From NCBI GenBank assembly GCA_009103225.1, contig RHPI01000810.1:372001-436000 (forward strand): a DNA stretch of 64,000 bases. Direction: 5' to 3'. A program made the position numbers and the translations under genes. Shown in pieces: positions 27,368 through 56,846 of the stretch (positions within the stretch are counted from its first letter, which is position 1; each line of letters begins with the position of its first letter). Source of the DNA: Chlorokybus atmophyticus. Lineage: Eukaryota > Plantae > Mesostigma and Chlorokybus algae. The notes under the pieces are model-generated. The model saw nothing but the letters and a program-made list of their open reading frames with translations, did not search any database and was not told where the DNA came from.

Positions 27368-28169
27368 CTGAAGTCAATGTTGCCGCCGTCACGAGCCTGG
27401 AACCACGGCGGCGACCACAGCGGCGACAGCCGCAGCCGCAGCCTCAACAGGCACCCTGTGATCAATTTACGACTGCTCTGTGAGTCCCTGAACAATTCAT
27501 GCCGGAGACAAAAGCTACTGTAAGCCTAAAGCAAACTTTTTACGACTGCATCGGACGGCGAAAGGGGTCGATCCAACGGCTGTATTCGCACTTCATCGCG
27601 AGGTCAAAGTCCGCCTGCCCGGCCAAGCAAGCAGCTGTGGTACAGAGTGAAGGGAGACGGCACTTCCCGCTCGGCCACGTCAGCCACGACTAACGTTAAC
27701 CTTCGAATGGTCAACATTCAACGCCGTCAGTGAACCGTCGTCTTGCAGCATCTTGTGCAGCGCCGTTTGCACTGCAGAGAGTCATTAATTGTGTCATAAG
27801 TTGTGAGTCATAACCGGTAAGTTACAGCTTTATAAATCATAACCTATCACCTGTATAGATGTCATCTGTGATACGTAGAGTCGTATCATATGTCACATGA
27901 CTGTACATGTGACATCTGACATCTCTGACCATGGTTAACAGTATTCCACAATCATATGGTATATTATATGGTAATACCTTAGGGCCAACACACTCACAAT
28001 CACGTCGCAAACGTTTCCCCTGCCGGCCGTTCAAATATTGGCAACGGCCGTGCACCTAAAAATACTTATTTACACTGTCGTGGCTCAGTTCCACCTGCAA
28101 TCTCCATACAGGGACCTAAGTACCTTTTCCGTCACTATAAGGCCCTTTTCGTTATAATTCAATGTTTAA

Positions 28170-28510
28170 TAATTGACTATGCCTAATTAACATGCACCTG
28201 TCAGGTACTTACCAGGCCTTAACAGGTGACTAGACCTAATTAACGAGCACCTTTCAAATTACCTATCGGGCCTTAACAAGTGACTTATTCTTATTTATGG
28301 GCATCTGTCAGTTTTCGATTAGGCCTTAACAAGTGACTATACCTAATCAACGGGCATCTATAAGTTACACATCAGGCCTTAACATGTGACTATATTTAAT
28401 AAACAGGCACCTGCAAGTTGCACATCAGTCCAACTTGATTGACTCAGCCTATGTGACAGACACTTGCAGGTTACACACCAGTCCGGCGCAGGCGACTGAG
28501 CCTGATTCAC
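28170..28510. repeat. Degenerate tandem array, about 53-bp unit, about 6-7 copies
   Basis: GGCCTTAACA(A/G/T)GTGACT recurs at about 28215, 28269, 28322 and 28375, with more diverged units on either side. Confidence 0.75.
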
Positions 28511-28900
28511 AAGCACCAATTAGGTAATTGTCGACAAAAAAAGGGATTCTTCCAGCAACTGAAGGTGATTGATGCTTAACTGTTGTTATACATATACATA
28601 TATGTAAGTATTTGAATAGCATGACTACACACGACTGTAACTAAATGCCAGCATCGTTATGTGCATGTGCTGTGTACAAGCACCTGAGGTGTGTACGGTG
28701 TCTTTCAGTCACTTGCCAAGGCTTATAGTTCGATTATGTGACTTGCGTTGCCTGCAGTTCTGTTGTATATCATAGGGATGCAAGTTGGTGAGTGCATGAG
28801 CATAATGACGATTGACTGAGCTGGTTTGTGATGCACAACATTAAGTCACAAGGAGCCTTGTAGCTGTGTACACCACCAGCTAAACGGACTATCAGCTGCG

Positions 28901-31189: not shown

Positions 31190-34100
31190 ATCAAGTCGAT
31201 GACGAGGCGAATGTCAGGCATAGTGCACCTGGGTTCGATTAGGAAGTGGAGGACCGGGAGGAGTAGGAGGCGGCGGCGGCGGCGGCGACGCACATCTTGC
31301 GCGAAGTTGTGGTCGTAAGAGTTCAAGCAGCGAAGCCAGCAAATACCGGGCGCCACGTCATGGATCATGGCAGGCGTTAGCAATGGGGATGTCCAACATG
31401 CATCACCAACATTGCACAAACCAGCAGGCAAGCCATCAAAGACCTTCGTCACACAGACAACTGCTTGGTGGCTCGCTTTTTTCAACAAGGAGTGGATCAA
31501 GAGCTACAATCTTTGGAGCCCTTGATCAGAACCATGCAAGACCAATTGCGAATGTGAAAACAAGCACAAAGGAATGCAGAGGTACGATTAACAGTCACAT
31601 GCATTTCCTTGCAAAAGCGATTTGTTTTTTGGCGCAGTCCATGTGATACATGTAGCGTGGCTACAGGCCTCCACTATTCACTCATACCCACTCTACGATC
31701 AAGCCGACATTGCGGAAGCCAGTGCAGATTGACAGAGCTGGGCGGCGGTATGTTGATGCCAATCTCGCTGTGCATGTTGACTGCATGCACCTCCAATGCA
31801 TGCCTACCTTTGCATGCTAGGATGTGCGTGAGCGTGCGAAGTCCCGCGCGCGTGCCGAACGAAGTAGGCTGGGTTTGAGCACAGGAGCGCGTGGCACTTC
31901 GTCCAGCATTCAACCAGTAATGACGCAGTCCATGCAATCATTCATGCATCAACCAGCAATGCCGCAAGTGACTATTCAAAGCAACTAACTGATGACGGTG
32001 TGACGCAGTTGGTTATTGCAATTGCAGTGTCGCAAGCATGCAGCTAACCCATATGTGATTGATTGACAGCGCCACAGTGCACAAGATCCTGTTGGAGCTC
32101 CTATGCAGGCCTGGATTCAATCCCATCAAATGGTCCTTCAATCCCTCTTACCAATGGGCGCGGCGGCAATGCGGCATAGGTTTAACATGCATGTTGGCAT
32201 GTTCAATCCCAGTTACTCCATTGGGGCAGTGGCGCATCCTGTGCCCATGGCTCACGAGCTCCGTGATAAGTCTGCGATTGAGGGTGGCGGGGAGAGTGCA
32301 CCCAATACCACCTTGTCAGCCCCCATGACTTCCCATGCAGGCCCCCTTGCTGCATGCACAAGTGGTCTCACCTGCCGCACCTGCTCCCCTCGCAGCCAGA
32401 GCGCATCCACCTTTCGCGGCACTAGACTTTTATCCACTGCCGTCTCCTCCCCTTGCAGCCATAGTGCATCCACCTTCCGCGGCACTAGTTTTTCATCCAC
32501 TGCCGTCTCCTCCACGAGCAACACCAATGATTGTGGGGCAACAATCCTTATTGCCGCAACCGGTAAGACCACAACACAATGCAAAAACCGATGTGGCTTC
32601 TGCACCTACATTACCCCACCCGCTGCAAGTTGAAGCCGGCGGTCTGCCTAAAGCAGGTACTGCAACAGTCATTGTGACTGTTGCCGTCGACAGTTGGACA
32701 CATCGCGTGAGTGCTGTATGCGCATGCAGAAGGTTCACTACTTGCAAGCGAGCTATCAGAAGAGCTGGCCGCAATCCGTGTACAGCCATCAGTCATGCTA
32801 GGTGGCTAGCTCGCCTCATGGGACCACTTCAATGCGCCAACGGATGGTAATTGCTTCTTCCATTGTGTGTTTCGCTCCAGGCCATCCATAGCGCAAAGTC
32901 CTGGATGATCACAAGCGCCCTAGCTCGAGCAGATTTTGGGCCATGCTGGACACGATGGACGACAACGGCAGGGGGCCACTCTGCAAAATATCACCGCTAA
33001 GGCTGTCGATACACGCGTGGCGAGCACAATCCTAGACTTCTGCAATGCCACTGGTGCCGCGGGAGAGATGGCGCAGTATTACGACAAACTGCTTGCGACC
33101 ATGTTGGCTGATGTCAATTGCAACATTGACATAGCCATGGCCAAGGTGCGATAGATCATGCGGAGAAAAGATGTGTACGTGGAGCATCTGCAGATGACCG
33201 TATTTGCCAACAAGCTGGACTTGTTAATTGGCTGCGTAACCATTCATTGCAAGCATGGGGAGTGGGTGCCACAGCCCGATAGCGCAGTTTGCGTTGAAGA
33301 TAACAAAGCTCCCAACTCAGTCCTGGTGGTGGCCAACACTGCTCCTAATGAGCCCGAAGCACACTTTTGGCTCATCAAGCCTGCAAGCACCGAACAATGG
33401 TCGTGGCCTATACATGGAGTGCCACCGGAGGTAACAGACCTGATTGGAGAGTGGCAAAATGGCGTTGCCAATCCCCCACTACCACCGGCTGCTTCTCAAG
33501 GTGCTGCGCCAACGCCTTAGGCCTCGCCTTCGTGTGCTAGGCTAGAAGTAGCTGTCGGTTCTGCACATCCTGACTACCCTCAACAACAGCCACATGCTCG
33601 CAATAACAATTCAGCACCCTCCCTTCTTGCCGCTGAGACACTTGCCACCGCACTCTGATAGGAGGCATCTCCATTAAGAAGTAACGGTAGCTCGCCCTCT
33701 CCCTCCAAGCTTGCCACATTGATCCCAATTTGTCTTGTTGGTAAAAAGATTGATCGAGGTATCATGAAAGCTGCGATGAAAGGCAAAGGCTGCATGCTCG
33801 ACCTTATGGGGCAACATGAGGAACGGGATTCAACAAACAAGCGCAAGGCTATGGAACAAGAAGATAACGCCTTACCTCCTCTGAGTGACAATCTCACAAA
33901 TTGGGATAAATTGTGACAGACTTCACTCATGGTAGTGTCTTTTACTACCATAGCCTAGTGGTCCGGCCCATATTGTTACAATGGTAACGGAGCTTGACTC
34001 TCAGGTTCAATTCCCGTAGGGGACTCAGGCAGATTTAAGGCAAAAACATTTGGGGCAGCTTGCCCTAGGCTGGGCGCGGGATCACGACCTGCGCGCCGAG

Positions 34101-35319
34101 CCAGTTTAACATAAGGCCGCATGAGCGGTCGCGCGGCGATGGCAGGTCGCGCGGCGAGGATGGCCTTCAGTCGGTCATGACCGTTCGTGGGCCGGATCTA
34201 ACAGGCCGTGGGCAGACCAATCGTGGTACGGCCACGAACACGGCGACGTGGGCTAGTGCCTCATTGGATTATGAGGAACTCATGGGTTAAATTGAGGAGA
34301 AATGTCACGAATTGGGATAAGTTCTGATAGACCTCACTTATGGTAGTGTCTTTTACTACCATAGCGTAATGGTCGCGCCCCAATTGTTACAGACAATGCC
34401 ACGGAGAGCGCCAGCATGTGCACCGACCGCCACCATAAAAAGAAGAAGAAGGTTGTTGGAACAAGGGACACTGACAGGACTACAAAAGCAAAGGTGAGGC
34501 AGCGCTACAATGTAGTTAGAAGAAGCACAGCGCCTTGAAGCCTCACTGGGGCTGTGTGTCCTCAGTAGGCACATACGGGTTTACAGCGTCATGTGGCTAC
34601 TCAGCATTGTCCAGAGAGACAGCCGGTGCCTAAGCTCAAACCACCGACGCGAAAACGCTCTGAGGGGCTGACTCGTAGTGCAAAGGAGTTGATCGCCCTA
34701 CAATACGCACAAGACGCGCTGCATCACCGCATGCGGCATGCCTCGAGGTGGGTGAGGAAGGTATGGAATAAGTGGGAGCAAACATGGAGAGTGCGGGCAA
34801 ACACATCTCTGGGGATTGGTCGTGGTTGGAACCTCACACGACATGGCCATCCGTAGTACGTTGTTGCCCCTCGCCGTCTTTGATATAATGGTGTTGTTGC
34901 TGCCGCAGCAACCGAGCAATGTGCAAGAGCTATCCGCGGAGAAGAACTTCGACCTGCTGCAACAGATGTATTTTTTGATGTCAACTGATGCGGGTCGAGA
35001 TGTGTGCCACTACCTGAGCAAATATACTGGGTGGCAAGTAAAACCATTGGAGCTGTACTTGGCATGCTTTGGCTGGCAGTTGTATATCATATGGCACATC
35101 GAGATGATTATGTGGAAGCACGACGAAGACGATGCGGGCGAGTACACGAGTGATGACAGCCATGACAAGGGCCTGGATGAACGCATGCTGGATGAGACCA
35201 CTAAGACTAGCAGGTGGTGTATGGCGGCAAACGGGCGTCAGGTGATCGAGCAGGCAGTGGAGCATTTTATTACGCCATTCAGATGGGAGTTGCGCCTGCA
35301 ACGCGATAACAAAGTTTAA
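31190..35319 (+). pseudogene. Degenerate coding region(s) of unknown function (Pro-rich and acidic segments), interrupted by TRIM-1A; may be one or several genes
   Basis: Consecutive same-strand ORF blocks 32335-32850, 32936-33154, 33158-33520, 34593-34856 and 34816-35319, several separated by single TAG codons. No family recognised. Confidence 0.35.
33892..34391 (+). mobile_element. TRIM (miniature LTR retrotransposon) family 1, copy A
   Basis: 89-bp LTRs at 33892-33980 and 34303-34391 ending TGTTACA. PBS-like TGGTAACGGAGC follows the 5' LTR and purine tract GAGGAGAAA precedes the 3' LTR. 5-bp TSD GACAA on both sides. Confidence 0.85.
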
Positions 35320-35381: not shown

Positions 35382-35804
<423 letters not shown>

Positions 35805-38242
35805 TCGCGGATGGGGAGACGCCCTGTCGCAAGCAAGCGGTGTGCCATGGCTGCATCATATTACAGCAGAAGAACGTGGCAAATAAATCAAAGAAGCTAC
35901 AAGCGTGTCCCTGCTGCAAGCAACCCGTTCACCGTTTTCGTCGCCACGCCTGCTGCAAGACGCCAATGTGTCGCCGGTGATTTGGCCCCCACCTTGATGA
36001 CAATTGTGCATGTATTGTGATTTCGTATTGAACACCTGTATACCATGTGGGTACATGTATAGTTGTAGCATGGTACATGGTGCACCCGAGATCTGCTGTT
36101 GTTGGAAGCATTGGCTGTACATATGTATGATAACTGCCCGGCGCATGAGTCAGAGCATGGCTTGCGTACCTTGCTAGTTCAGAGCGGTTGGTTGACAGCA
36201 ACAAATTCGAACAGCGATCTGGGACTTGTGGAATGACAGCACAAAATTACTCTACAATCGTGGTAGTATGCGAGTATCCTTGTACTGTAATACCATTAAT
36301 GGATGAAGTACCATGCATGTTGATGTAGCATCATGCATGGTACTGTAATACTGTCCATGGTACTGTCGTGCTTGCACTTGAAAGTGTGACTCATTTAGGG
36401 TTTGTAAGCTAGCAACCCCAAATTGATGCCCATACCCTACAGGCTCGCTCAGTTTGTGGGCAGCCGTGCCGATTCATATCTTGCATGATGTCAGCGGCAG
36501 CAGTTGAATCCCCCTCACCTAGGAGACCATGCTTGGTGTGCCCACAATGCAATGTGTACGTATGTACCAATGGCCGTAGGCAGCAAATGCAAGCACACTT
36601 GACCGAATGCCAATGAGTGCAGACAGTGTGCCACGATTTTAGTGCTGCTTGCTGGCATCACACCACACACAATGTCGACATGTTTAATTGCCGCCTCGGC
36701 AAAGTGCTGTGCAAGGAACCCGAGTTTTTCTATTGCGTGTAGTGCGTGTGCAAATCGTGCTCGCGCTCATGCTTTAAATGGCGAGGGGAACCCATGCGCT
36801 TCTTCACATGGACAACACCGGGACATGTAGTTAGTGGACAGGTGGTGGATGCTGTGGAGGTAATTCGGCAAAGTGGACAGCAAGGTATCACTGCATGTTA
36901 TGTTGGGCGTATGCTGATCTCATGGATGTTGAAGCTGTTGTCGCATTCAGAGCAGTCTCCTACGGTGTGGGCGTGGGCAGTTTTCACCCCCTGACCGCTG
37001 TGGAGGAGGCAGACCATCGACCATTGGACATCGCACTGCATCGGCTGCGGAACGCAGTTAAGTTGGGATGGGAGCAGCTGATCGGTGTGAGTGTCGTGGT
37101 GCATTGGCCGCTAGATGGGGAATGGTATGCGGGCGTTGTGGAATTACTCAAGCAAGCGTCAGGTCAGCATCGCTTCTTGGCGTGCGAGATTGTAGACGCA
37201 TTGTATATGCATGGTGCAATGGAAATTGGCTTTGCAGGGCAGCACTGTATAATATTCGATGACGATGATCGACCACAAACCATCAACTTCGAAGGGCACA
37301 ACGTATTCGCGTACACATCAGTTGACGGGGCACGCTCTGTTCTACGCATCGGAGGGGAGAATGTCACTCGCAAAGTAAGCCCTGACGGCATCATTGTTAG
37401 TCCCTGGCCAGCACCATGGCCAGCCTTGACCACATACACGCCATTTAACAACAAGCTTTGACACACACGCAGACCAAGGGCACTCGACCTGTTCTGCGGC
37501 GGTGGTGGTGCTAGTGTTGGTCTATATCACGCAGGCTTTGACGTGATTGGGATGAACATAAGTCCCTCCTTTGAATACCCGATGCCCTTTATACACCGCG
37601 ATATATGCATCCTGAGTGCCGGAGAATTAAGCGGGTACGAGCTCATATGGGCCAGTCCACCATGCCAGGCCTATTCAGGTGCTATCCCAACACATTAACG
37701 GGCGGCACATGGCACATCTTTGAGACACCAGGATATGCGATCGCTCGTCCGAAATCTGCTGCTAGCAAGTTTGTCATTGAGAATGTGCCAGGAGCAGCTT
37801 CCTCATTTAGACCCAATCTGTCCCTTTGTGGCACGATGTTTGGCCTATCAACCTTCCGACACCGTCTGTTTGAGACACAGCCAGTGGTAGCTACCCCACC
37901 AGCACGCTGCTCGCGGCCAAGGCGGTTGGACTGCTATTAACGCACCTGTCCGCTAGTGCGAAGAAGACAATTGTGACATCAAACGCTCCACAATAAATGT
38001 ACCTAATCTATGGCCTTCAAAGCACCAGGGGCAGCATTGCTGCATGGCAAACAGCGCTGGGAATGCCATATATGACCTCGGCCGTTACTTTAGCGAATGC
38101 AGTTCCTCTCGCAATGGCGGAGTGCATATGGCGTTTTATGCTTGAAATAAAGGATATGCGCTGTGACTACCCTCTGTGTCATGAAAGTATGAGGCTTGAG
38201 TGTGGCGCTGTAACAATTGGGGTCCGACCATTAGGCTATGGT

Positions 38243-38764
38243 TGTAACGGGAAGGTACATTAAATTACCATAAATCGACCATAAAAGCACCAAGTCTTTT
38301 GTGGTCGAGTGGGCTGTGACATCGGTATCAGAGCTTGAGACTCGGGTTCAATTCCAAACTTGCACACGAATTCCGTGGTCGTTGTTTCTCAATCCAATAT
38401 CATCGTAAATGGTCACTTCATAAGTGCCATTATCGATGGGTTGCAACTTGCCTACTGGCAATCATGCCGGCGTTCAGTTGATGCGGCAGGGCGCGACCTG
38501 CCTGTCGCGATGCGATCTGTGGGGCCGGCAGCGGTGCGCTATGCGCGCGTTGACCGGTATGGGCCAAAATTGGCCAGTCCTTCGGCGGTGGGGCCGAAAA
38601 CCGACCCTATTCACACCCCTGGAATGATTCCCTAACTGATGGGAGCCAGCTGCCGAGGACGTTAGCGTTCTTAAGTTAGGGGGAATGTAACGGAAAGGTA
38701 CATTGATTTACCACAAATTGACCATAAAAGCACCAAGTCCTTTGTGGTCGAGTGGGCTGTGACA
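38243..38764 (+). mobile_element. TRIM family 2 copy forming the left end of a chimeric insertion
   Basis: 79-bp LTRs TGTAACGG...GGGCTGTGACA at 38243-38321 and 38686-38764. iMet-type PBS (C)GGTATCAGAGC and PPT GGGGGAA. Confidence 0.85.
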
Positions 38765-41700
38765 TTCTGCAAGATCAATGCTGGCAAACTGCCCATCAGT
38801 GATGCTGATCAGCTGGATATGTTCAGGCGTGGCTTGGACACAGATCTCGTGCAGCATGTGGCCGTCAACCCCGCGAGTTTGCAAGAGTGGGCCTCGACGG
38901 ACTTGCCAATGCTGATGTACATGGTTGCTGCTGTGGACAATGTGAAGCGCTCGCATGCAAACATGCAAACCACAGCCAAAGAGGCAGCCCCAGCTTCAGC
39001 TGCAAAGCGCCTGGTCACTGACAACAAACCTTTTGTGAAGAAGGCAAAAACATCTCAGCCTGCTGGCCCCTACAACGCGGCCAAATCCACCATCACTTGC
39101 AACTTCTGCAACATTACAGGTCATGTGGAGGCCAAGTGCTATGCAAAGCAACATGCACAGAAGGCCAAGCAGCAGAAGGACAAGAGATAGGAATTGTTCG
39201 TGGTTGCTAGCTTAGTCGAGCAGAACGACGTCAAAAACTCTGTACTTCTTGATAAAGTTTCCTCTCTTCGTGATGTATCAAGTGTATGGACTGAAACAAG
39301 CACACCACATGTGTTGACAAATGCAAACGGTTGTGTTTCAAGCAATGTTCCATTCTTTGAATTGGTAACTGCTGTTAAGCACTTACACGAGTTGCAATTA
39401 CAACATGCTGTCACTGCATGTGTAGTTATCCCTCGATATCACGGCCCGTGGTCGCGATTGTTAAAAGGGGGAGAATTAATCATGCAACTCTCACGCAAAG
39501 ATACAGGAACTTCACCGTTACAAGTGATCTTTATCAAGCCTGCTACCAATCGCTGCACTCCGACATTAGCTACATTTAATGGTCACTCTTTGCTACTCAA
39601 ATGGAGATTTGAGAGTCAACTTATGGGCACACCATGTACAGCATTGATTGATACAGGTGCAAACCATAACTTTGTTGAACAAGCTTGGGTGAAACGTAAT
39701 AACATACCTTTCACACCCGTCACGTCGTATGTACGTGCCGCTTGTTCCACCCTCAATGCAATTGGGGAGGTGAAGGGCGTTTTGTTATTAACAGCCACAA
39801 GACTCGATCAACTTTCATCGTGGTGGATATAGGTATCCCCGGGGTGGATGTTGTTTTGGGTGAACAATGGCACACCGAAGCAGGTTTGCAATTGAACTCT
39901 CGAGCAAATACGTGCACCCTTCGTAAGGGTAAACGTAAGGTGACGTTAACCGCACCTGTACTCGCACGTGTTGCTCGCGACAATGTTCCGCTCCTCTCTG
40001 CTATGCAACTGAAACGTTGCATGCGTGAACGTGAGGAAGTATATTTGATGCACTTACAACAGGTAGAGACACCTGTTGAACAGGCCGTATCTAACCCTGT
40101 GGTGCAAGAACTTACAGAACAATACGCAGATGTATTTCAGGATGAACTCCCAAAGTTGCCGCCTGATAGAAACAAACATCATATCATTCCATTGGAAGAG
40201 GGGGCAAAGCCACCTTGGCAGCCTATCTATAGGCTACGTCCCTTGAAACAACAAACGGAGATGGAAAAACAGCCCAGGGAACTCTACATTAACAAAGAGT
40301 TATTGGACATAGGTTTGACAACAAAGAGCATATTTCCTTTTTGTGCATCAATTCATTTTTGTGCCCAAAAATGTATGGCAAGCTACGCATGTGTATTGAT
40401 TACCGTGCGCTGAACAAGGTAACTGTGAAAAACAGATACCCTTTGCCTCGGATGACTTGATGATTTGTTAGATAAGCTGTCAGGTGCAACAGTGTTTAGC
40501 ACACTGGATTTCACCAGTGGTTAACATCAAATCAAAATCCACGTGTCAGATATACAAAAAAGCTGCATTTCGCACCCCAATAGGACACTTTAAGTGTAAA
40601 GTGTTACCATTTGGGTTAACAAATGCACCAGCTACATTTCAAGCAGCAATGAACGCGGTATTTGCTGATGAATTGTACAAGTTTGTTACCGGTATATCTT
40701 GACGACATTATTGTGTTCAGCAAAACCCGGGAGGAACACCACAAGCATGTGGAATTGGTTCTAGTTAAGTTACGCGAACACACATTCCATGCCAACTTGT
40801 GTAAATGCAAGTTTGCAAAAGATGAACTACCCTTTCTAGGGCATGTGATTGGCAAAGAAGGATTGAAATTGGATCCTCAAAAGGTGTGTGTGGTGAAGGA
40901 TTGGCCACCACCTAAGGATGTACATCAGTTACATGCTTTCTTGGGGCTAGCCAATTATTTCCGCAAGTTCATGCGAGCATATTCTAGCATGGCAAATCCT
41001 TTAACATCTTTACTGAGAAAGGATGTTAAATATGTGTGGACGGAGGCACATGAGGTTGCTTTTGCACGCATTGAGGATGCATTAACACAAGCCCCTGTGT
41101 TAGCCTTCCCCGACCACACCAAGCCTTTTGTGGTGATCAGTGATGCTTCCACCATTGAGTGTGGGGCAGTCCTTCTACAGGATGACAGACCATGTGCATA
41201 TGAAAGCATCAAGATCATTCCTGCTGAACGTAATTACACAACCACTGAGCAGGAATTGCTCGGGGTGGTGCACGCGCTGCGCACATGGCGTTGCTACTTG
41301 GAAGGTGTGGAATTTTCAGTGAGTATTGATCACAACCCGCTCACATTCTTTCATACGCAACAAAACCTGTCGAGGCGGCAAGCTAGGTGGAATGAATTCA
41401 TTTCTCGTTTCACTTTCACTTGGCAATACCATCCGGGTCGCACCAATGTGGCGGATCCACTAAGTCGTAGCCCTGCTCTTTTGGCACTTACGCGCTCTCG
41501 AAGTACGCGTCTTTTGCAACAGCCTGAAGATTCTTTCATAAAGGAAGTGTCCACAGGCTATAACTTGGATGATCGGTTTATCAGTCAAACCAACTTGCAA
41601 CAGCTTACTGCTGTTGGCAATCCGTGGTATAAAGGGGAGCAGTTGGCAATTCCCAACTCGGGCGACTTGCATAAGCAATGCTTGCAATCAGTGCATGATC

Positions 41701-43622
41701 CGCCGTATGCTGGGCATTTGGGGAAACACTCAAAGCTGCAACAGCAACAGTTATATATATTGGTGGCCGTTAATGCCAGCTGATGTGGATTAATATGTTT
41801 GCACATGTGACGTGTGTCAACGTAATAAGCCACTACGACAAAAACAATCGGATTGCTTAAACCATTGGCACCATAGATTAAATTTGGGATAGTGTCGGTA
41901 TGGAATTGATTATTGACCTACCTGAAACAGCAGCCAAATACACTGCATGGTGGTTTTTGTCGACCGTTAAACCAGAATGGTGCATTTTGCCCCGTGTTGC
42001 ACAACTGTGAGTGCACGGGACTTAGCACATTTATTTGTGTCCACGGTTTTTCGAGTTCACAGTGTACCGCGTGAGCTTATCACAGATCGTGCTCCTCGAT
42101 TTGTTTCCAAGTTTGGGAGAGAAGTATGTGAATTGTTGGGGGTAAAACAAAGCATGTCGACTGCTTTCCACCCGCAAATGGACGGACAAACTAAGCGAGC
42201 AAATCAAATACCGGAAGAAACGCTTCGCCACTACGTAGCTCCTAACCATGCTGATTGGGACAGTACTTGCCAGTGGCAGAGTTCGCTGTGAACAATGCGT
42301 GGCAGGAAAGTGTAAAGGAAACCCCATTTTTCTTGAAGTATGGGATTCGCCCGAACACACCAGCGTCATTGCGTGTACCTGGCAAAGCCATGACTGTACC
42401 AGCGGCAAAAGAATTTGCCACGGATATGCAAGAAAACTTGGCTCGAACCAAGCTATGTCTGTTAGAAGCACAGGACAGGCAGAAAGCTTATGCTAATACA
42501 TATCGAAGAATGTTCACTTTCATTATCGGCGATAAAGTTTTCCTTAACGCAAAGAACATGACCATCAAAGGTACGGGTGCTCGCAAGTTGCTGCCTCGAT
42601 AATTAGGTCCTTTCTCTATCACTGATAGAGTTAGTACGCACGCTTATCGACTGCAATTGCCCCCAAGTGTGCGTATACACAACGTGTTCCACGTGAACTT
42701 GTTGAAACCATACCGCTCAGACGGTAGAACACAACCTCCACCACCACCGGTTGAGGTGGACAGCGAGCTCGAATACGAGGTGGAAGCTATTTTGGACCAT
42801 AAGCTGACTAGTTGGGGAAGCGCAACCCGCTATTTGGTGAAATGGAAAGGGTATGGCCCGGAACATAACAGTTGGGAGCCCGACAGGCATCTTGCGCACT
42901 GCCGCGAGTTGCTTCGAGCTTATTGGGACACACGTCCTGACCCGTGAAACTGTGGGCTTGGTTGATGACAGATTGCCCGTGCAGTTTTATTACCACCCTG
43001 TCATTTCCTGCTATCTCACTAGGTTACAACTACTCGAAATCAAGCATGATCAGCTTGAGTTCAACGAGGACATTGAGAACGTAAGTGGGGGGGGGAATGT
43101 AACGGGAGCAATAATAATAGGGGTAGTATTGCTACCTAGATAACACATTCTGTATGAATAAGTATCTAAACATGCTTATTTATACCTCTTTTTTACGGTT
43201 CCTCGCATATTAAAGGCTATCATGCTTTAGCATAGCATAAATAAGTCTCAATAGGTGTAGAACCGCTTATTCAAGCCTATTTAGAGTCAAAATCGATAAA
43301 ATGTGACCACTATCTCGTTAGGCACCTTGCGATAGGTATCTTTCGATAGGTACCTTATCGATAGGTATCTTATCTGAGCTGTGATTGGCTCGCGCTAGAG
43401 TTCCTAACTACCCTATCTGTAGGGTCGATGTCTAGTTGTGGGTTAATTATCGCGAAATGTATATTTGATATACTCTTAATATAAAAGGTCACATCAAGAT
43501 GTAACCTCACTTTCAGCTCTCTGCTCAGTGGTGGCCACGCCGCTAAAAGGCTTGTTATAGGCGGTGTGGGTGTTGGGGTAGAGGATTGAAAAGGCATCAC
43601 CGGCGACGGTGGTGCTGTTACA
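38765..43622 (+). mobile_element. Ty3/Gypsy chromovirus, 5'-truncated and frameshifted (gag-PR-RT-RH-IN-chromodomain, 3' LTR 43098-43622)
   Basis: Zinc knuckle CNFCNITGHVEAKC, protease LIDTGANHNFV, RT VYLDD, RNase H SDASTIECGAVL...ELLGVVHAL, integrase HDPPYAGHLG/ELITDRAPRF, chromodomain YEVEAILDHK...YLVKWKGYGPEHNSWEP. PPT poly-G+AA, then a 525-bp TG...CA LTR. Confidence 0.93.
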
Positions 43623-44308
43623 ATGGTAGTAAAAGACACTACCATGAGTGAGGTCTGTCACAATTTATCACAATCTATCCCAATTCATGGCATTCCTCCC
43701 CAAGTTAACCCATGAGTTCCTCATAATCCAATGAGGCACTAGCCCACATCGCTGCGTTCGCGGCCGTACCACGGTCGGTCTGCCCGCGGCCTATTGGATC
43801 CGGCCCACAAACGGTCATGACCGACCAAACGGCCATCCTCACCGCGCGACCTGCTATTGCAGTGCAACCGCTCACGTGGCCTTTTGTTGAACTGGCTCGG
43901 CGCGCAGGTCGTGATCCCGCGCCCAGCCTAGGGCAAGCTGCCCCAAATGTTATTGTTTTTGCCTTGGATTTGCCTCAATCCCCTACGAGAGTTGAACCTG
44001 AGACGTCAAGCTCCGTTACCATTGTAACAAATGGGGCCCGACCATTAGGCTATGGTAGTAAAAGACACTATCATGAGTGAGGTCTGTCACAATCTATCCC
44101 AATTCGTGACAGGCGCACTGTATTGAGGCTTAATGCCACATAGCTAACTACCAGTGATTGTTAATGTTGCATTCAACTGTGGTGACGGTTGTGCAGTGAC
44201 AGCTGCCCGGTATTGTACACGTCCACATGCAAAAGTCTTAGCATACATTTAGCAATGCCTAACTGACCGATATGCTCGAAACTTAGAGTAGTGAGACAAG
44301 TACATGTG

Positions 44309-47300
44309 TCACATGGCAGTGCAGTAAACGTTCACCCAATACTTGCCCTCTTGTACACAAGCGCTGTCCTTGTCAAACACGGGGAGCAGCTGAACAATGC
44401 CTTTTGCTTGCTCTATAGTCACAATGCGGACCCCCTCGACGCTTTTCCCATTCCAAAGCGATGCACTTCGTGTCGCTTGTCACATCTAGCTTTGAATACC
44501 AGCAGATAAACGCGACCTTCTTCCACACACGCTCGCCGCTACCACCCCACACCACCACGCGCCCAACAAGGAGTGCCTGAGCCCACCACGTCTCATTTAC
44601 ACCGTCCTCATCACCTTCCCACTCAAGTGTAGAGAACCAAGGCCGCCCATGGAACATCCCAGTTGCGCGCGCCATGTTAACTCCTGATGTCATGTACACC
44701 ACTGCGCCTCCGTTCACCACGCGAACAGCACGCCACCCGTTGGCCAACTTCAATTGTTCCCTCGTCAACCAGCTGTTCAGGGTGGCAGGCAGCTTGTCGC
44801 AGAATGGAGTCAGAAGGGCAACTTGGCGGCTATGCGCAAAACTGCTCTAATTCTGGCTGAACTCCCTCCTTGTCAGCAAATCCATCCATAGCAACTTGTC
44901 CGTCTTCTCCATTACATTACAGTACTGCTGCCGCGCCTGCGCCATACCCGAGCGCAACTCGGGATCCACGACCATGCCATCCTCTCTCACGTATTCCGCA
45001 TAGCTCCATGCCTTCAGGATACGCGCATGGTAGTCCCCGTTGTTGCCACCACGCACCCATTGTTTGATATTTTGGGCGTGCGTCTGCTCCATGCGGTTGG
45101 CGCTGAATCAATTTGGGTGTCCACTGCTAACAATTGCCGGCCCAAAGTGAGTGAGCTGATTCATCTTCTCGATCTTCCAGCCTAACTTCTGTGCGGAATA
45201 TGACGACAGTAGCGGATGCAACACTGCAGATTTGAAGGCATTCAGCTCGTTGTCGGTTGTAGTCAGGGTTTCTCTTGTGTGTTCATGCGCCTTGAGCAAC
45301 TTCTTGTTCCACTGGGCAAGCAATGCTGCAGCAATAGTGAAGAAATCGTTGCCCTCACTGTTGAGCAGCAAACCGTCTGCAAGGACCGGTAGCAGCTGCA
45401 GCACCACCACTTTCTCCACCACCTGAAAGGAGTGGTCGGACAGGAAGAAATCTACTGTGCTTGTGGGTGCCTTAAAGTGCAAAACTCGTAGAGTCGCCTT
45501 GCATGCATCCAGCTTGTGCACATCTGCTTGTGAGCATGTGTCGTTGGCTTTTGTGTTCAACACAAAAGCAACACCAAAGACGTGCCTGGCCTGCAGAATC
45601 TGTCTCGTGGATGGACGCATGCGTTCCTTCGCAGCGTCGTACACAGCAGCAAGCAGGTGGTCAATGATGCCTCCCAGCACATGCATTACGTCAGGGGCAA
45701 GACGACAGTAACAGTCAGCTCCCGGCACTAGCGATTGTTGCCAACCCCACAATGCATTCTGTTGCCAAACCACATTGCCTGGTTACACGGAAAGCTATTC
45801 ATCCTCACGAATGCCGGTAAATTTCCCATTACCTCGTCGACATGCATCGAGTGCTGCTCTTTAAAAGCCTTGGCTGTCTGGCGTGCATTCCTAACACCGC
45901 TATGCAGGTCCGCCCGCAGCTGACGTATTGCTGGTGTGTAGAAAGCCTCGTTCTCAATTCCGCGTCCTCCATTTTCAACAGATCTGATTTGGTGACAAGA
46001 CAAACATCGCAAGGATGTCGTGTTTGATTGCCCGACACACTGCATGCGAGTGTGGCAGTCTACTGCAACACGATAAACTCAGATGCTCCATTAACAACAT
46101 CCTCCATAAGCTGTTTGCCGGCAGGCTGCATCCGGTTACAACCATGCATGCCCACTACCTGCAAGTCGCTGATGTAGTTGGCAAGTGCGGGAAATACACG
46201 ACGCTCGATGCCACTCAGGTCGATGAGCTGCAAACCTTCCAAGCTCGCCCGCTTCACATCCCCTAACACTACATTATTTAAAAGCGTCATGAAAAATCTC
46301 ATGTTCTTGAATTGGGAACGATTTCTTGCCCTGCGCCCAGGTGGGATGCTCGGCCACTGCGTGAACCACCGGCAGAAGTGCTATCATAACAACCCCCATG
46401 TTGCTAGCAGATTTGTCCCAACTGTGGTTGGCAAGTGATGCCATTAGAGGGTAGCCAGAGCGCTTGCCCGCGCTGTTCAGTGTGGTCTTGTCAATGTAAA
46501 AAACGGCAGGCGCCAAGTAGGACGCTTCCCCCAGCTCTCTCCTCAAGTCCACTACAACATCCTTCCACCAATCGCCCGTGGAAATATGGCCAACGCTGTG
46601 CTCGTCACCACTGTATTGGAGATTGAAGCCATTAGCGGCATGTGGATTGCCATATAACCGCGCGAGCCATACCTACTCTAACCAAGAGCATCAACAGCCA
46701 TGCTGGCCTCAAATTGGATACTGCATTTTACAAACCTTGGCCGGCATATATGTGACGCTGATGTCCTGATCCTCAGGGTCTCCAGGCTTGCGCAGGTCAG
46801 TCGTCACATAGTTCCAACACGGCAGCACACTCGCATGTGCATTTGTGACATGGCTCTGATGGTTGAAGCACATGCACCGCACACCGAGAACACCTTAGAC
46901 TGAGAGAAAGCAATTGTGGTCCGGAGGTAGCTGGCCACATGCACATTGGTCTCCCACCGGAGCTCTTCCGTCAAGAAATGTGCATTTAGGATGCACTCGA
47001 TGATCCGCCCCATGTCCGAGGCCAACAGGCCTTGGCCGTTGTTGCACTGCACGAATGCCACTGTAAGAGCATGCTCCAAGCCATCCTACCTGGATTCTGA
47101 CGCGTGCGAGGAGACGCCTCCACTTTCATGTTGGCGTGCCACAGGTTTCTCAGGCACACGCACACATCGAAAGCCCTCGTTCACTTCCTCCTCCTCCTGT
47201 TGCTGCTGTGCGTGTGTCTCCTGGAGGGGTTCTTCAGCAACAAGCATGTGCGCATCCTCGAATTTCCGGGTTCAACATGACCCGCATTGTACTGTAATGG

Positions 47301-47412
47301 ACGCTGGCCGACATGTAGCTTAATTTGCTTGCACCCTGCTGCTAACAATGTGCATGTAGACCAAGCTGCGTGTGGCGAAGCGCATGTGGCAATACGGACA
47401 AAGGACTCCCAT
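44309..47412 (-). pseudogene. Plavaka transposase, full span, multiple frameshifts and stops
   Basis: ATG at 47412 (MGVLCPYC...). Core motifs as in copy 1. C-terminal RATGMFHGRPWFS...ETWWAQALL...AFICWYS...GIVQLLPVFDK...YWVNVYCTAM* (TGA 44309-44311). Confidence 0.8.
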
Positions 47413-47887
47413 AGCTCACTGACGTCGACACAGGTGTCGCCAATGTAACCTGCATCATCATATCCAGCAACACGCACAGCTGCCGCCGCCGCCGCCGCCG
47501 CCGCCGCTACCCTTGCATGCCAGAGGCGGGAAACTTGGCCGCCATTCGCTGGCGTGATGGCTCCGTCGTACCAGTACTATGATACGATCGAGCCATTGCA
47601 CATCCAGGGTGGGGTGAGGTTGCATAGATATCCTGAAAGGATCGTTTCAATGGTACGAAGACGCAGTTGCCAAAAGGTAACATTGAAATGGTATCTTTGT
47701 ACAGTGGCAATGGCAATTTGTACCATTGACAAGTGTTGGCAATGCCAGTCCCTGCGCATGAAAACACCATTGATGGCTCCGCCAAGCTATGCCCTTACAG
47801 GGTGGTGATGCCGAGGGTGTGTGGCGTTTGGTGGGTCGTTGGTGGCGCTGCCAGGGGGCGTAGTGGGCGTTGTGGTCGAGGTCCAGG

Positions 47888-48729
47888 ATGAAGCTCATGT
47901 TCACACAGGGCGGGCAAAATGCCGGTGGGGTGTCCTTGGTGTCAAACCCCACCATGCCTACCGAGGGCACAGCCAATGACAACAGTAACTTGGGAGATAT
48001 CTTACCGTGCTCCCCCTTCGAGTGGGCAAAGGCACACCACAATATTGCCTCTAAGATCATCCGACCCACCAGCAGCTGCGACCACGGCAACATGATTGAA
48101 GGGACTAAACAAGACTGGCATAACCAAGGTGGGTTATGATGCACTGTCAATGACACATGCCAGGATTCTTTTATCTTGCACATGCACAGCCTCAAGTATC
48201 TTGCACATGACATACACTGTCAATACCACATGCACACCCTCATGCATAGCCTCCAGTGTCATGCACATGAACAGCATGACCTCTAACAAATGCACAGCCT
48301 ATTTCTACTTGCGGGAGCTCATAAGTCGCAAAAGAGAAGCTGCGGAGTACCACGAACGGGTAATCCATGATTCACGTCAATACTTCTAGCGGCAATTAAG
48401 CAGTATGCTTGCAAATTGCTATGTTGGTTAGAGTGAACCAAGAGCAGCGCGGCATGTTAACTGTCTGCCTAGCGGAGTGCAAAGTGGAAGGCAAGGTAAG
48501 CATGTATATGCTGATGGGCTAGTGCTCTGGCAGCACGCCATTCTTACAGCATTACCAAATGCAAGTGGTCACTCTCAAAGCGACCATCAAGCGCATGCGC
48601 GTGCACGGCGAGGTGCCGACATTCAAGCTGAAGGACGAAGTAGCCGCTGTATTGTCAGCAAGCGAGGCAGAAGATGACTCCAATGTTGAAGCAGAAAACT
48701 TGTAAGAGAAGGAACATGAGTGGGGTTGA
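47888..48729 (+). pseudogene. Degenerate copy of the Plavaka accessory gene
   Basis: Homologous to 2961-3816, including the VVTLKATIKRMRVHGE segment, with extra stops. Confidence 0.4.
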
Positions 48730-50350
48730 GGCGGAATTGAAGCAGGCACCACAGGTTGACAAACTGCACATGAGTGCGACAGCTTGACTCAATGTTGTAG
48801 GTAGTCTCATGCGCAAGTCGGTTGCTCAATTGCAAGTGGACATACTCTTACCACTGCCGGTATGATGTATATATTGTGGGCTTATAATTGCGAGACCAAA
48901 CAATCAATCCAAGGTTTGTACAAGCTGTTTGGCATGTTGGTGTTGGCTTACGGCAAGAGTTGTCAACTTTTATCAAATGATAATTGTCATATATCAACAG
49001 CAGTGTAACGGCAAGGAACGTTAGCCATCCGTAACTACCGGCTAACGGCCGTATGTGCACATCGATCAAAGGGTATTGGTTGACAACTCTCGGCCGATTA
49101 GTGCCACTAATCACCACTTTCGGCCCGTGGCTATCTGCGTCAGTCCACGTAAGCCAACGGCAAACCCAACATTCCCAAAGTAACTTTTCAGGCACCCGTT
49201 AGTCCCTCAGTCCTTAGTCAGTCACCATGTAAAATTTGCAATGCAGTACTTATAATGCTAAGCAACAAACTAACGACACTACCCGATGGGGCTGTTGCTA
49301 TGTGCTGTGTGACCAGCAAGTAGCGTGGCAGCGGCAGGTAGGCAAGACCAACAGCACCGCTCAGCTACCTGCAGAGGGGAGGAGAGGAGAGGCAAGTCAA
49401 GTTGTCTAGCTCCAGTGTCTGCATGCACAACACACGAACAACAAGGATGCTGCAAGTGCCAACGCCGCCCCCCTGCCCGAGTCACGAAGTTAGCAATGAG
49501 ATAGATGTGCTTACGCATAGGTCCATAGGTCAAGCCTCTTTAGCGATTGCTGCTTGCCTTGTTGGTTATCAATACATACTCATGTTTGCTGCGTATTTTG
49601 CTATAACAAATGGCCATTTGATTCTACCATATGATAACAATTTATGCATTAAGCTCATAACAAAACTCCCACATTATCGCATCTTTCTCTTAAACCACCA
49701 TCACCTTCAGCCTATGGAGGCTTTATTCCACGTGCACATTATGTTAGCAACATGCTCACATGGCATGTGAGCATGTAATTATTATGTGATATATGAAGCG
49801 TGACGCCCACATAAGATGTTAGACAGACCAAAACGCACTGCCTTAACATGTTTGTTGTGCAGAATATAAGGTTTCAAGAACTTATGATTTGCATTTACAA
49901 ATCGAATCATCTCATCATTAACTGCTTGGCATGCTTTTTTATAAGTATATAGGCAAAGAACATACTAGGATTGTAGAACTCCCAGAGTTTTAAAGTCCGC
50001 GTATGATGACGTGCTTGTCACATCACTGGTTTCCAGTGATATGACAAGCACAACAATTAAACACCAACAACTGCCACGATCGCACAGCACACACAGTCAG
50101 CACGATCAGTAAGTTAGCAATAGGCCAGCAGTTAAGTAGCAAGTACATGAAAGCAATGATGCGCTAGGCTCTTCAGCGCATCCATGGATGTAGCAAGCAG
50201 TAGTTGATGCCACGGGCTCACCTACACTCAAGCGCCCACAGTGAGTTCCCAACTGCCATGGGAGCAACCAATTACAGTGGTCTCCTGTTTTTTATCCCGC
50301 GCTATATAATATTCAATACATCACTTGAACAACTCCTGCATATATATGTA

Positions 50351-53300
50351 TGTTAGGGGCTGCCGAACTTGTTTTATCTGTTGAGTCTGCTGCCTTGCTT
50401 ATGATGAACATGAGGTCGATGAAGGTCTATTTGGCTAGCCATGTTGTTATTTATGCCGATTTTCCATGCTGTTATCCATGCTGTGGTGGTGCTATGAGGG
50501 GTGCTGACTTGTTATGACAAGGCTAACCACCGTCCTAACCGCTCCAACGCGATCTGCTAACATGATAGCCTGCAACCATTATTGTACAGGGTCTTCTAGA
50601 AAAACAACAGCAGTGGCGGCTGGGGGTCCAGCAAGTTGTCATTGCAATCATCAGCGTCTGCGTCGTGTTTACCCAAGCTGCTGTGCCCAAGCCCTGACCT
50701 AATTCTCGCGCCTCTCTACTGTGCAGGTTGTGCTTTAAACTTTCGTATCTGCATGCTCCTGGCCTACCCACGCCTGCCGGTCTGGAGGTCCGGTCCAAGT
50801 CTACGGCTATGGTAGAGTATTGTCTTGGCTTGGGTAGCTTGATGTTGAAAGGCTGTGGTTGGCCCCCCGTAAAATTGAGTGCTTGTGGGTGTTTGCTGCT
50901 ATGTGCTATGTTTTCACGTGCATGCAATTTTTAAAAGGAGTGTGCTTCGCGCAGCGTTTGAGTATGTTACGTGTTTAGCCCGGGATTCTAGTTGAGCCGT
51001 TGGTTTCGTCTAGAGGCCGATGATCCCCTTGCCAGGGCCGGCTTAGGGCAGGTCAGCAAGTGCCATTGCACTTGCATGTTTGCGTTGTTGTGCATGACTG
51101 CTGTGCATAGCATGCGGGGCCAAGCAGAGTTTGTAGCGTGTGTTAGGGTTTTGGTCTAGCATTCTTGCGATTGTGTCTAATGTCCCCGCTTAGGGCCCTG
51201 TAAGCTCACACTAAGGGTCTAGTGTGAGCTACAGGGCCCCAGCAAGCATGCCGAGCCAGGCGGACTGGCAAGAGCACCAGCGGCATATCACCCAAGTGAA
51301 TACCTACTGGAAGCTACCAATTTTGAATAAACTACGTGCGAAAGCATAGAGGTTTGCACCTACACCACATGCTGTGCATATTGCGGAGACCACATGTCAT
51401 ATATGTTATGTTCCAAACTATGCGAAGTAAAAAAGGTTATGTGGGTTTGATAAAAAACATTGCTTCTGTTAAATGGCAGCAGCACTAACTGTCAGCTGCT
51501 GTCAGTAAGGCTACAGACGTAGAAATAGGGATGCTACTAATAAGGCTTGATGCTTGGTCGATTTCAGCTGTGGAACAATTGCCAAAGTGTGACCCACCCA
51601 GACTTTAGCAACGACAAGCACGAGGACGATAGCGCAAGTAGATTTTGTACTTGCGCTCACACCAACCCTCCGGCTACAATGAAAACGCAAGGGCTTGGAA
51701 AGGTCACGCCCATCACACAGGCGTACTTGCACGCATGTGTGTGCACGTGTGTTGACAGGGCATCAAGCACTTGTGCCGAGTGGGTGAAGGACTTTTGCGT
51801 GCAGAGATCACACACGACATTTGCAGTATGCACATTGCATGCTGGCACTTTCACCGCACAGCAAATGCAGTGTTATAAACGTTGTGACCTCTATTGTCAC
51901 AGCCCACTCGACCACACAAAAGACTTGGTGCTTTTATTGTCGATTTGTAGTAATATAATGCACCTTCCCGTTACATTCCCCCACTTAAGAACGCTGACGT
52001 CCTCGGCAGCTGGCTCGCATCAGCTGGGGAATTATCCCAGGGGTTTGATTAGGGTCGGTCACCGGCCCCACTGCCCAAGAAACGGCCAATTTAGGCCCAT
52101 ACCAGTCAACGCGTGCATATCGCACCGCTGCCGGCCCCACAGGCTGCGTCGCCGCGATAGGCAGGTCGCGCCCTGCCATCGATGGGTCGCAACTTGCCCA
52201 AAGGCAGTCGGGCCGACCGAACTGGTTAGTTCGGCCCGACTGCCTTTAGGCAAGTTGCGACCCATCGATGATGGCACTCATAACGTGACCATTTACGATG
52301 TTATTGGATCGAGAAACAATGATCGCGGAATTCGTGTGTAAGGCAGGAATTGAACGCGGGTCTCAAGCTCCGATGACCAATGTCATAGCCCACTCGACCA
52401 CAAAAGACTTGGTGCTTCTATGGTCGATTTGTGGTAATTCAATTCTTAAGTGGGGGGGGAATGTAACGGGAAGGTACATTAGCACAAATCAACCATCAAA
52501 GCACCAAGTCTTTTGTGGTCGAGAGCTTGAGACCCGGGTTCGATTCCTACCTTGCACACGAATTCCGCCATCGTTATTTCGCGATCCAATAACTTCGTAA
52601 ATGGTCACTTTATAGGTGCCAACATTGATGGGTCGCGACTTGCCTAATGGCAGACGTGCCGAATTGACTAGTCGGCGCGGCAGGGCGCGACCTGCCTATC
52701 GCGGCGACGCAACCTGTGGGGCCGGCAGCGTTTCGCTATGCGCGCGTTGACCGGTATTGGCCTAAATTAGCCGGTCCTTTGCTGGTGGGGCCGGTGACCG
52801 ACCCTAATCAGACCCCTGGGATGATTCCCCAGCTGATGCGAGCCAGCTGCCGAGGACGTCAGCGTTTTTAAGTGGGGGGGAATGTAACGGGAAGGTACAT
52901 TAAATGACCACAAATCGACCATAAAAGCACCAAGTCTTTTGTGGTCGAGTGGGCTGTGACATCTATCATATGTTGAATCTAAATTACATATCCACTTCAG
53001 CCCAACTGCAGTTGATATAAGGTTACGCATCATCCATTCAAAGATCTCTACAGCTAGCGGTGCAGTTGACATATGTGAGGAGATCACGGGGACATGCAGG
53101 CAGCAACTTGATTATCCACCGCATTATCCCCCTTTCCCAAGTGCAGTGGCGGACATGCTCAACCTCCCGCAGCTTCTGGCTGATCCAAACCTCACAGCGC
53201 TGACACCAGGACTACGACAATAATGGCGCGCCCTAGTCATCCACTGGCGGTACAAGAAAACCCTGGGTCAAGTCATTTGCAACCGTTCTACCATTGCGCA

Positions 53301-55785: not shown

Positions 55786-56846
55786 TGTATGTACAATTGA
55801 CAATATGTCATACTATCTTTGTCGCATAAGGCATAACAAATGTCACCTTGTCCAAACAGGCAAGTGTCGGGTCCGGTGAGACTGGCTTTTGCATGCTGAG
55901 ATGGAATACATTATTGTTACATGTTCATTTCATGTTATTCTACCATTCAATATCTCTATTAAAGACCATCTGATGAGAAGAGGACATAAAGAGCAACAAG
56001 AGGACTGCATATACTAGTTAGTAACCAATGACAAATGCGTGCACATTTAAACATTGTGCCTTATGAGTCAGTTGTAAGCTCACTACAAGCTGATACAAAC
56101 GTGCAAGTTAATGCAACGACAACAATAAATTTGTCGATAGGTGCTTACAATAACATAAACAATTCGCATCATTATTACAGATCTATCAAAGTAGCATACC
56201 AATTAAACCATGCACCATGCACGCTGATGTATTCATCATAGCGGCCGAACCAACACTGTAGAATGAGACACCACTGCACGAATGTGATGACAAGCAACCT
56301 CAGAATGCAGCTGAAACTGCACATCGTGCTGCGTGCAGGTAACATCGAAGTGTGCTTGTACGCGCATAAGCATAACTGAATGGTAGACAGGGCAGGACTA
56401 GAGCAAAGCCAATAGCAATCGCCACAAAGCCAACCCACAACCAAACCAACTCACAACCGGATGCGTGCATGACTAATGGGGTTGATGGTGTCGTAAGTAG
56501 TAATGGTGGTAATGGTAATAGTGGTCATGTACATAAGTCCGGAAGACCAATGTATACGGGGTGCTGCATCATGTATATAGAGACGGATGGTGAGTGTGCA
56601 TGGCTGCTGTTGGGACGCGCATTTTTGTTAGCTTGCACATAAATGTTGCTTTACTTACGTGCACACTATGCATATTTCATCTTTTGTACACAGCAAGTCT
56701 ACTTGTTTGGTCAATATCCTAGGTGGATGACAGTGTGCTACTCTGACAGAAATCCATGTCCCAAAAGGCTTCAGGCAAACTAATCATGGCGTCCAGCACT
56801 GACACGGCCTAGACAAACACCAATCTCTAAACAGAGAAGCTGCTGC

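Follow-up and report, generated by a model that had tools for sequence, protein, structure and literature searches.

A dead copy of a Tudor-cytosine methyltransferase gene, probably Plavaka transposon cargo, in the alga Chlorokybus atmophyticus

What kind of gene lies within a 64,000-nucleotide stretch of Chlorokybus atmophyticus DNA (contig RHPI01000810.1 of assembly GCA_009103225.1, positions 372,001 to 436,000; hereafter the window), where the motifs of a small C5 cytosine methyltransferase follow a Tudor-like open reading frame (ORF), and to what does it belong? A first-pass annotation made from the letters had proposed a chromatin reader, PHD-like plus Tudor, fused to a phage-type enzyme. 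On balance we favour the view that the window holds a dead copy of a multi-copy, intron-bearing Tudor-C5 methyltransferase gene, likely cargo of a Plavaka transposon, whose product is predicted to dock on histone H3 monomethylated at lysine 4 (H3K4me1) and to write 5-methylcytosine (5mC). The setting is eukaryotic, intron-rich and of ~52% GC, and encodes a HacA-like LeuC, a type present in plants; together with a chromodomain Gypsy and the plant-type Tudor, this suggests a green alga.

Frame, Tudor domain and decay of the fusion gene

The ORF at 36835-37461 and the methyltransferase motifs lie in one frame with a single TGA between them, as the annotation had stated. Relatives of this copy were found as contigs in three public runs from two studies (X1, X2 and X3, with X2 and X3 representing one sample); the stretch makes up a small share of the words in these runs, and contigs were aligned at 80% likeness. 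The contigs cover all 30 of the 30 bins of 35800-38250, and one from X3 spans 36872-38205. At position 37459, the five contigs that cover it (two in X1, two in X2 and one in X3) all carry G. The codon is therefore GGA, for Gly, and the derivation of the stop by a C>T change from CGA was wrong; a conserved stop parting Tudor and methyltransferase in other copies, an outcome that the annotation had also envisaged, is not what these relatives have. Furthermore, every in-frame ATG from 36985 to motif I falls within a 75-nt intron of the Tudor domain. Because the enzyme has no ATG outside that intron, the relatives carry G at 37459 and their linker is free of indels, the Tudor and the methyltransferase were very probably made as a single spliced protein. 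The linker may itself hold an intron, in frame or out of frame.

The Tudor of RDM15 binds H3K4me1 through Trp616, Tyr623, Tyr641, Asp643 and Asp645 (PMC8184781). Its structure, 7de9, is the PDB entry that the window Tudor matches (E 0.008 and 0.004). Once spliced, the window Tudor has W, Y, F, D and D at the five RDM15 offsets with zero gaps, compared to W, Y, A, E and V in the unspliced sequence. A gap-free cage register that appears only upon splicing therefore supports both the 75-nt GT-AG intron, which the annotation had taken as a sign of adaptation to eukaryotes, and the Tudor domain, which was thus upheld by the 7de9 match and the register but not by any Pfam profile. Judged from these residues, the chances that the domain reads H3K4me1 are about even. 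Viral sequences scanned with the Tudor ORF gave five pattern matches and no relatives.

Upstream, the poly-C run is likely an assembly artefact which masks the 5' part of the gene. A 63-nt GT-AG intron at 36560-36622 is likely and would remove the TGA at 36617. The PHD-like domain of the annotation was not recovered: no PHD finger (C4HC3) was matched in Pfam or the PDB on the upstream ORFs, whose exon structure is uncertain. Likewise, no RING was matched in the upstream Cys-rich exons in either database, and the exon at 35805-35976 gave no Pfam match and no useful PDB match. Two further candidates were not counted as domains, namely the chromodomain-like half at 36764-36859 (CBX7 chromo, E 0.4) and a TERB1 match (E 0.26).

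The window copy is dead, with three stops and about five frameshifts. The annotation had said so on the basis of the TGA and a frameshift near 37765, but the lesions are more numerous. Indeed, the relatives lack the TAA at 37696 and, compared to the window, have 7 nt more at ~37766, 4 nt more at 37911, 1 nt more at 38173 and 1 nt less at 36983 (the differences listed comprise 40 of the 221 substitutions and 12 of the 15 indels); a TAG at 37954 and a frame shift near 38030, inferred from homologs, are further lesions of the window. The methyltransferase appears to have been under purifying selection, as 11 of the 19 codons that differ in 37462-37660 are synonymous and 8 non-synonymous, for an expected synonymous share of 23-29% (p 0.001-0.008). 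The linker has two synonymous and three non-synonymous differences, too few to judge. The letters of the window are biased towards C>T/G>A relative to the relatives (110 vs 34 in X1), from which we take it that this copy decayed after selection had ended; the observed/expected ratio of CpG is flat, at 0.72-0.76 in host and element DNA alike, and uninformative. In X1, 137 contigs aligned in identity bands of 5, 30, 49 and 53, which we read as a diverged multi-copy gene family, contig depth giving no copy number.

The methyltransferase and its nearest relatives

C5 methyltransferases bind S-adenosylmethionine at motif I, their Cys attacks C6, and a Glu and an Arg hold the flipped base. All the motifs listed by the annotation are present, in canonical order: I (37486), IV with PPC (Cys 37663), VI with ENV (37779), VIII with RHR (37857) and X (38096). 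The catalytic Cys, ENV and RxR are intact, and the phrog_363 invariants of motifs IV, VI, VIII and X (SPxC, EN, R, E, P) are retained. The piece 37462-37695 matches PF00145 (E 1e-5, 25.6 bits for a cut-off of 22) and the read-through methyltransferase matches phrog_363 (E 1e-15); its TIGR00675 score is far under the cut-off. By its sequence, we identify the enzyme as a phrog_363-type C5 methyltransferase of ~230 residues. Profile searches, as the annotation had proposed, returned the enzyme, but no Tudor or PHD in Pfam.

With PF00145 and phrog_363 matched and no DNMT-family domains, the description of the catalytic domain as compact and unlike DNMT1 and DNMT3 holds. The domain sets of DNMT1/CMT, DNMT3/DRM, DNMT5 and DNMT2/6 (BAH/RFD, inserted chromo, permuted motifs, SNF2) were not found, and no window ORF matches PWWP in Pfam. 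In the PDB, query P0001 matched no DNMT1/3 chain at E<=10, and the phrog_363 family profile reaches such chains only at E 4e-4 or worse. The single-sequence AlphaFold model of the window protein has a predicted local distance difference test score (pLDDT) of 33, too low to use; the predicted fold of a relative, P0295 (pLDDT 92), matched HaeIII, DNMT1 and DNMT3 to an equal degree, with 10-17% identity.

The homolog search took in 968 of 2803 candidates, and the 120 matches listed cover 21-37% of the query. Of 120 homologs, every one matches the N-half, while the ENV-RHR piece in the middle is matched by 108 and the C-piece by 13; the best homologs are ~39% identical across the whole domain. A second search gave 2704 representatives, of which the best stretches listed all begin at residue 173 or later. 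The searches returned small stand-alone enzymes, and the top match has 329 phage records. Among the 120 longer proteins listed (of 7993 candidates), we take the fusion partners to be polymerase, HNH, primase and similar; none is a histone reader, a weak negative given that intron-bearing genes are poorly represented. Phage members P0122, P0123 and P0432-P0487 presumably comprise tandem double domains and fusions to family A DNA polymerase, and the latter give a hint of replication-coupled methylation.

A tree of 72 rows (48 of the 250 stand-alone rows chosen by BLAST rank, the short P0124, P0127 and P0303 excluded, no eukaryotic DNMTs) places the window with giant-virus-like enzymes and enzymes bearing a methyl-CpG-binding domain (MBD) with support 97/93, 'giant-virus-like' being a label assigned in this analysis for members other than L162. 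A first FastTree of 217 rows was poorly resolved. Furthermore, the stretch that follows the catalytic Cys reaches 15.1 bits against the profile of this sub-clade and -0.6 bits against the phage profile, and the pattern R..HG..W occurs in 13 of 20 sub-clade rows compared to 0 of 118 others; the window has its R..HG portion and the Trp is present in one relative's contig. The nearest group of the enzyme is therefore likely to be the sub-clade of giant-virus and MBD-insert enzymes, in which PF01429 was placed in the variable region in 9 of the 120 listed, and one member of the other-insert sub-group lies on the giant-virus metagenome-assembled genome (MAG) contig L162. The annotation was right that the enzyme is of virus or phage type, but these closest relatives leave a direct phage donor undemonstrated; with modest confidence, we favour entry via a giant virus or another eukaryote and not directly from phage.

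Within the sub-clade, P0149, P0134 and P0292-P0301 group coherently as compact C5 methyltransferases whose target-recognition region houses an MBD, possibly a 5mC reader-writer family, and the literature search found none such. The long-insert form lies on giant-virus(-like) contigs at L162:10004-11104 and L003:9881-11017; L162 is a GVMAG contig, on which an A32-like ATPase motif was spotted by eye.

Transposon setting and rival explanations

A decayed Plavaka transposase gene converges on the methyltransferase gene; the annotation had overlooked it, as it had the multi-copy state. This gene is broken by stops and shifts and was assigned through its twin, whose ORF 1084-1704 matches PF18759 (E 2.5e-23). 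The Plavaka copies at 1-4365 and 44983-49239 are 88% identical, in the same orientation and 45 kb apart, and the first crosses the window edge. Without the block of long terminal repeat (LTR) elements that separates them today, the end of the methyltransferase gene would lie ~265 bp from the stop of the minus-strand transposase gene. Given this tail-to-tail spacing, the methyltransferase gene is probably cargo of a giant Plavaka DNA transposon, with a candidate span of ~15 kb after removal of insertions; since no element ends were located, its cargo status is likely rather than established. Relative to its twin, the adjacent transposase has a C>T/G>A bias of 97 vs 41, like the decay of the methyltransferase gene.

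The LTR block is a set of nested elements unrelated to the gene, and at 38209-44111 it fills over two thirds of the range 35805-44126 that the annotation had given to one fusion gene. An inner chimera, with gag, protease, reverse transcriptase, RNase H and chromo, a polypurine tract at ~43087-43095 and a 3' LTR at 43098-43622, sits within an LTR of the outer element. Loose contig ends at 38205, present in each of the three runs, resume as window 44114+ (22 of 24 letters). Given this empty site in the relatives and the target-site duplications (TSDs), the retro-elements are later insertions and the enzyme is not their cargo.

Table 1. Features of the fusion gene and its surroundings in the window
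Feature	Position	Strand	Basis or remark
Poly-C run	35383-35804	none	422 nt of C with one N
Cys-rich putative exon, CxxC...CxxC, RING-tail-like by eye	35805-35976	+	Contigs of relatives span the exon
Cys/His-rich putative exons	36443-36859	+	Weak chromodomain-like half 36764-36859 at their end
Tudor exon 1 (cage Trp, Tyr)	37069-37162	+	PDB 7de9 match and register
GT-AG intron, 75 nt, within Tudor	37163-37237	+	Register with RDM15 residues 616-645 gap-free only after removal
Tudor exon 2 (cage Phe, two Asp; Pro at Glu647 equivalent)	37238-37290	+	Register
Open linker	37291-37458	+	No indel in relatives across 37340-37720; donors 37311, 37375
TGA stop of window copy	37459-37461	+	Every covering contig of relatives has G at 37459
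Compact C5 cytosine methyltransferase domain, phrog_363 family	37462-38200	+	Two stops and four frameshifts inside
Outer small LTR element, TRIM-like (terminal-repeat retrotransposon in miniature)	38209-44111	+	TSD GGCGC; sister copy 33892-34391
Inner TRIM and chromodomain Gypsy chimera	38243-43622	+	TSD ATGGT; Pfam and repeats
Decayed Plavaka transposase gene	44373-47410	-	88% identity to window 1-4365; convergent with methyltransferase gene
Transposase upstream region	47411-49239	-	Twin similarity stops at 49239, candidate element end

As to function, the Tudor would dock on H3K4me1 nucleosomes and the methyltransferase would then write 5mC locally; given the minimal target-recognition region, the reader would provide the targeting. 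The most likely target would be the element's own transcribed body, made to resemble host gene-body chromatin. That this was its purpose is suggested by an analogous proposal, self-methylation by DNMT-bearing retrotransposons (PMC5890265), and we regard it as rather doubtful. A broader picture can be offered tentatively, namely a green-algal Plavaka family with its own reader-writer, in which an H3K4me1-type Tudor would steer a giant-virus-derived mini C5 enzyme. The enzyme would be one branch of an undescribed eukaryote/giant-virus phrog_363 sub-clade which gained readers at least twice (a Tudor, and an MBD in the target-recognition region), a DNMT lineage overlooked by standard surveys.

Several points weigh against the reading as Plavaka-borne reader-writer, besides the limit on copy number given above. 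One of the three runs may be the window's own source. The Tudor has no Pfam match on the window ORFs and only one PDB match, Glu647, which serves H3R2 in RDM15, is Pro in the window, and the literature search found no target sequence of phrog_363-type enzymes. In the tree the window sits on a long branch (1.39), and approximately unbiased (AU) tests reject neither its placement among phage-type rows (p 0.29) nor one outside the sub-clade (p 0.39). The search for terminal inverted repeats and TSDs within the window gave the 49239 end no inverted partner, and the left end was not located. The X3 contig spanning 36872-38205 continues for ~1150 nt, long enough for the transposase if colinear, of which the first 30 letters were read.

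The same observations can be arranged around a host gene family, or a segmental duplication, that merely stands beside a Plavaka insertion. The lack of element ends, the spliceosomal introns and the purifying selection would all suit it, but the many diverged copies, the 3' flank shared by all three runs, a decay bias matching that of the transposase and the tail-to-tail spacing make it unlikely. Neither do we give much weight to Tudor and methyltransferase being neighbours and not one protein, through an out-of-frame splice or a separate start. A splice from the good donor at 37375 to the acceptor at 37472 would remove a 98-nt out-of-frame intron, which tells against the fusion, and the few linker differences do not decide; however, the relatives' linker is open and indel-free, the enzyme lacks an ATG outside the Tudor intron, and the other splice choices keep the frame.

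An endogenous giant-virus relic, whose methyltransferase would later have gained introns and a Tudor exon, is similarly improbable. It accords with the presence of L162 in the nearest tree group, with a Pithovirus methylase as best viral fold match of a sub-clade member (33% identity) and with published viral DNMTs in endogenous viruses, but no viral marker and no informative Pfam match turned up in the 50 ORFs of 27.8-36.9 kb, the surroundings consist of intron-rich host genes and transposons, and the giant-virus relatives are stand-alone and have an insert missing from the window. Finally, the chromodomain Gypsy follows the enzyme immediately downstream and has the same strand, and Klebsormidium offers a precedent in Gypsy-Dnmt3 (PMC5890265), the comparison drawn by the annotation. 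Gypsy cargo is nonetheless scarcely credible: a DNMT-bearing LTR retrotransposon was rejected as the enzyme lies outside the LTRs and both TSD pairs that bound the block, relatives have the site empty, and the gene has introns and is not Dnmt3-like. Hence the preferred reading remains that of a Tudor-C5 gene carried by Plavaka.

Other features of the window were also recorded. The inner chimera joins a TRIM to a 5'-truncated chromodomain Gypsy, and a single 5-bp TSD bounds the whole unit. A second outer TRIM copy (33892-34391, minus strand, TSD GACAA) splits a plus-strand gene (ORFs 32924-33890 and 34393-35319) that may be further cargo. Two inner-TRIM copies, inverted and nested, form a 1-kb palindrome at 51895-52962. 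Direct repeats of 600 bp (50346-50972 and 55197-55788; 76%, 4.8 kb apart) flank ORF 53237-53797 and are possibly an old LTR pair. An array of ~53-bp tandem units at 28166-28518, just past a chloride-channel-like host gene, is a candidate for subterminal repeats; by eye these resembled the right end of the element, and their score of 52, compared to a mean of 48 for the window, is not significant. Two complex tandem arrays with units of 200-250 bp occupy 6042-7750, and a tRNA-like sequence, seen by eye, follows near 7745-7815.

Comparison with known systems

Compact C5 enzymes of phages and prophages in phrog_363 (Paenibacillus, Mycobacterium and Streptomyces phage) share ~39% identity and a tiny target-recognition region with the window enzyme, but are stand-alone, intronless and of 200-240 aa, or fused to polymerase, HNH or primase, with no Tudor among those listed. 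The giant-virus-like/MBD-insert sub-clade (L162, P0149, P0292, P0295 and Pithovirus LCPAC201 A0A481Z4Z4) has the post-Cys segment in common with it and groups with it in the tree; the variable region of its members contains an insert, either an MBD or another, whereas the window has an N-terminal Tudor and no insert. Bdelloids have a chromodomain-fused N4-methylcytosine enzyme.

The window Tudor resembles that of RDM15/PDS5C (PDB 7de9; PMC8184781) in its aromatic cage and two Asp, gap-free. It differs by Tyr641->Phe and Glu647->Pro and in being joined to a methyltransferase, whereas RDM15 recruits RNA-directed DNA methylation (RdDM). Like the window gene's relatives, SymbioLINE-Dnmt, SymbioDIRS-Dnmt3 and KnitGypsy-Dnmt3 are mobile C5 enzymes under purifying selection with self-methylation proposed, but they are intronless, of Dnmt3 or orphan type and carried by retro-elements, and the available part of the source reports no histone reader (PMC5890265). 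ChloroDNMT and the orphan DNMTs, compared by description only, are likewise lineage-restricted and laterally gained; the orphans mostly lack companion domains, the reader of ChloroDNMT is a PWWP and not a Tudor, and the Acanthamoeba orphan is Pithovirus-like (PMC12344493). Giant repeats in Amoebidium (PMC11244446) and a C5 methylase in a viral Mariner (PMC3627910) have also been described.

The closest parallel in setting is that of giant Plavaka elements (CMCT/EnSpm clade), in which the transposase likewise stands beside a gene modifying chromatin or DNA. Bostrychia PAG1-3 of red algae are 17-19 kb long, compared to ~15 kb here, with methylase, SET and oxygenase cargo (bioRxiv 10.1101/2025.02.11.637652), fungal Plavaka carry TET/JBP (PMC12730594), and Plavaka is present in green algae (PMC13519894). 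Known elements end in TGT..ACA or CATCA..TGATG with a 2-3 bp TSD, and the window offers no inverted partner for its candidate end. Their cargo is an N6-adenine methylase-SET, a 2-oxoglutarate oxygenase or TET, and here it would be a C5 methyltransferase with a Tudor. Neither a Tudor-fused compact C5 enzyme nor a Plavaka-borne C5 enzyme was found in a literature search from which subscription papers were out of reach. Plavaka with chromatin-modifying cargo is already known. Near-intact natural copies exist in the public runs. The gene would exemplify an origin of eukaryotic DNMTs in which a chromatin reader was added to a small viral enzyme that has hardly any target-recognition domain. Cut-and-paste elements are known with erasers (TET) and with methylases that act on adenine or on histones; a cytosine writer guided by histones, if true, would be a case of a transposon that exploits, and does not just evade, host 5mC.

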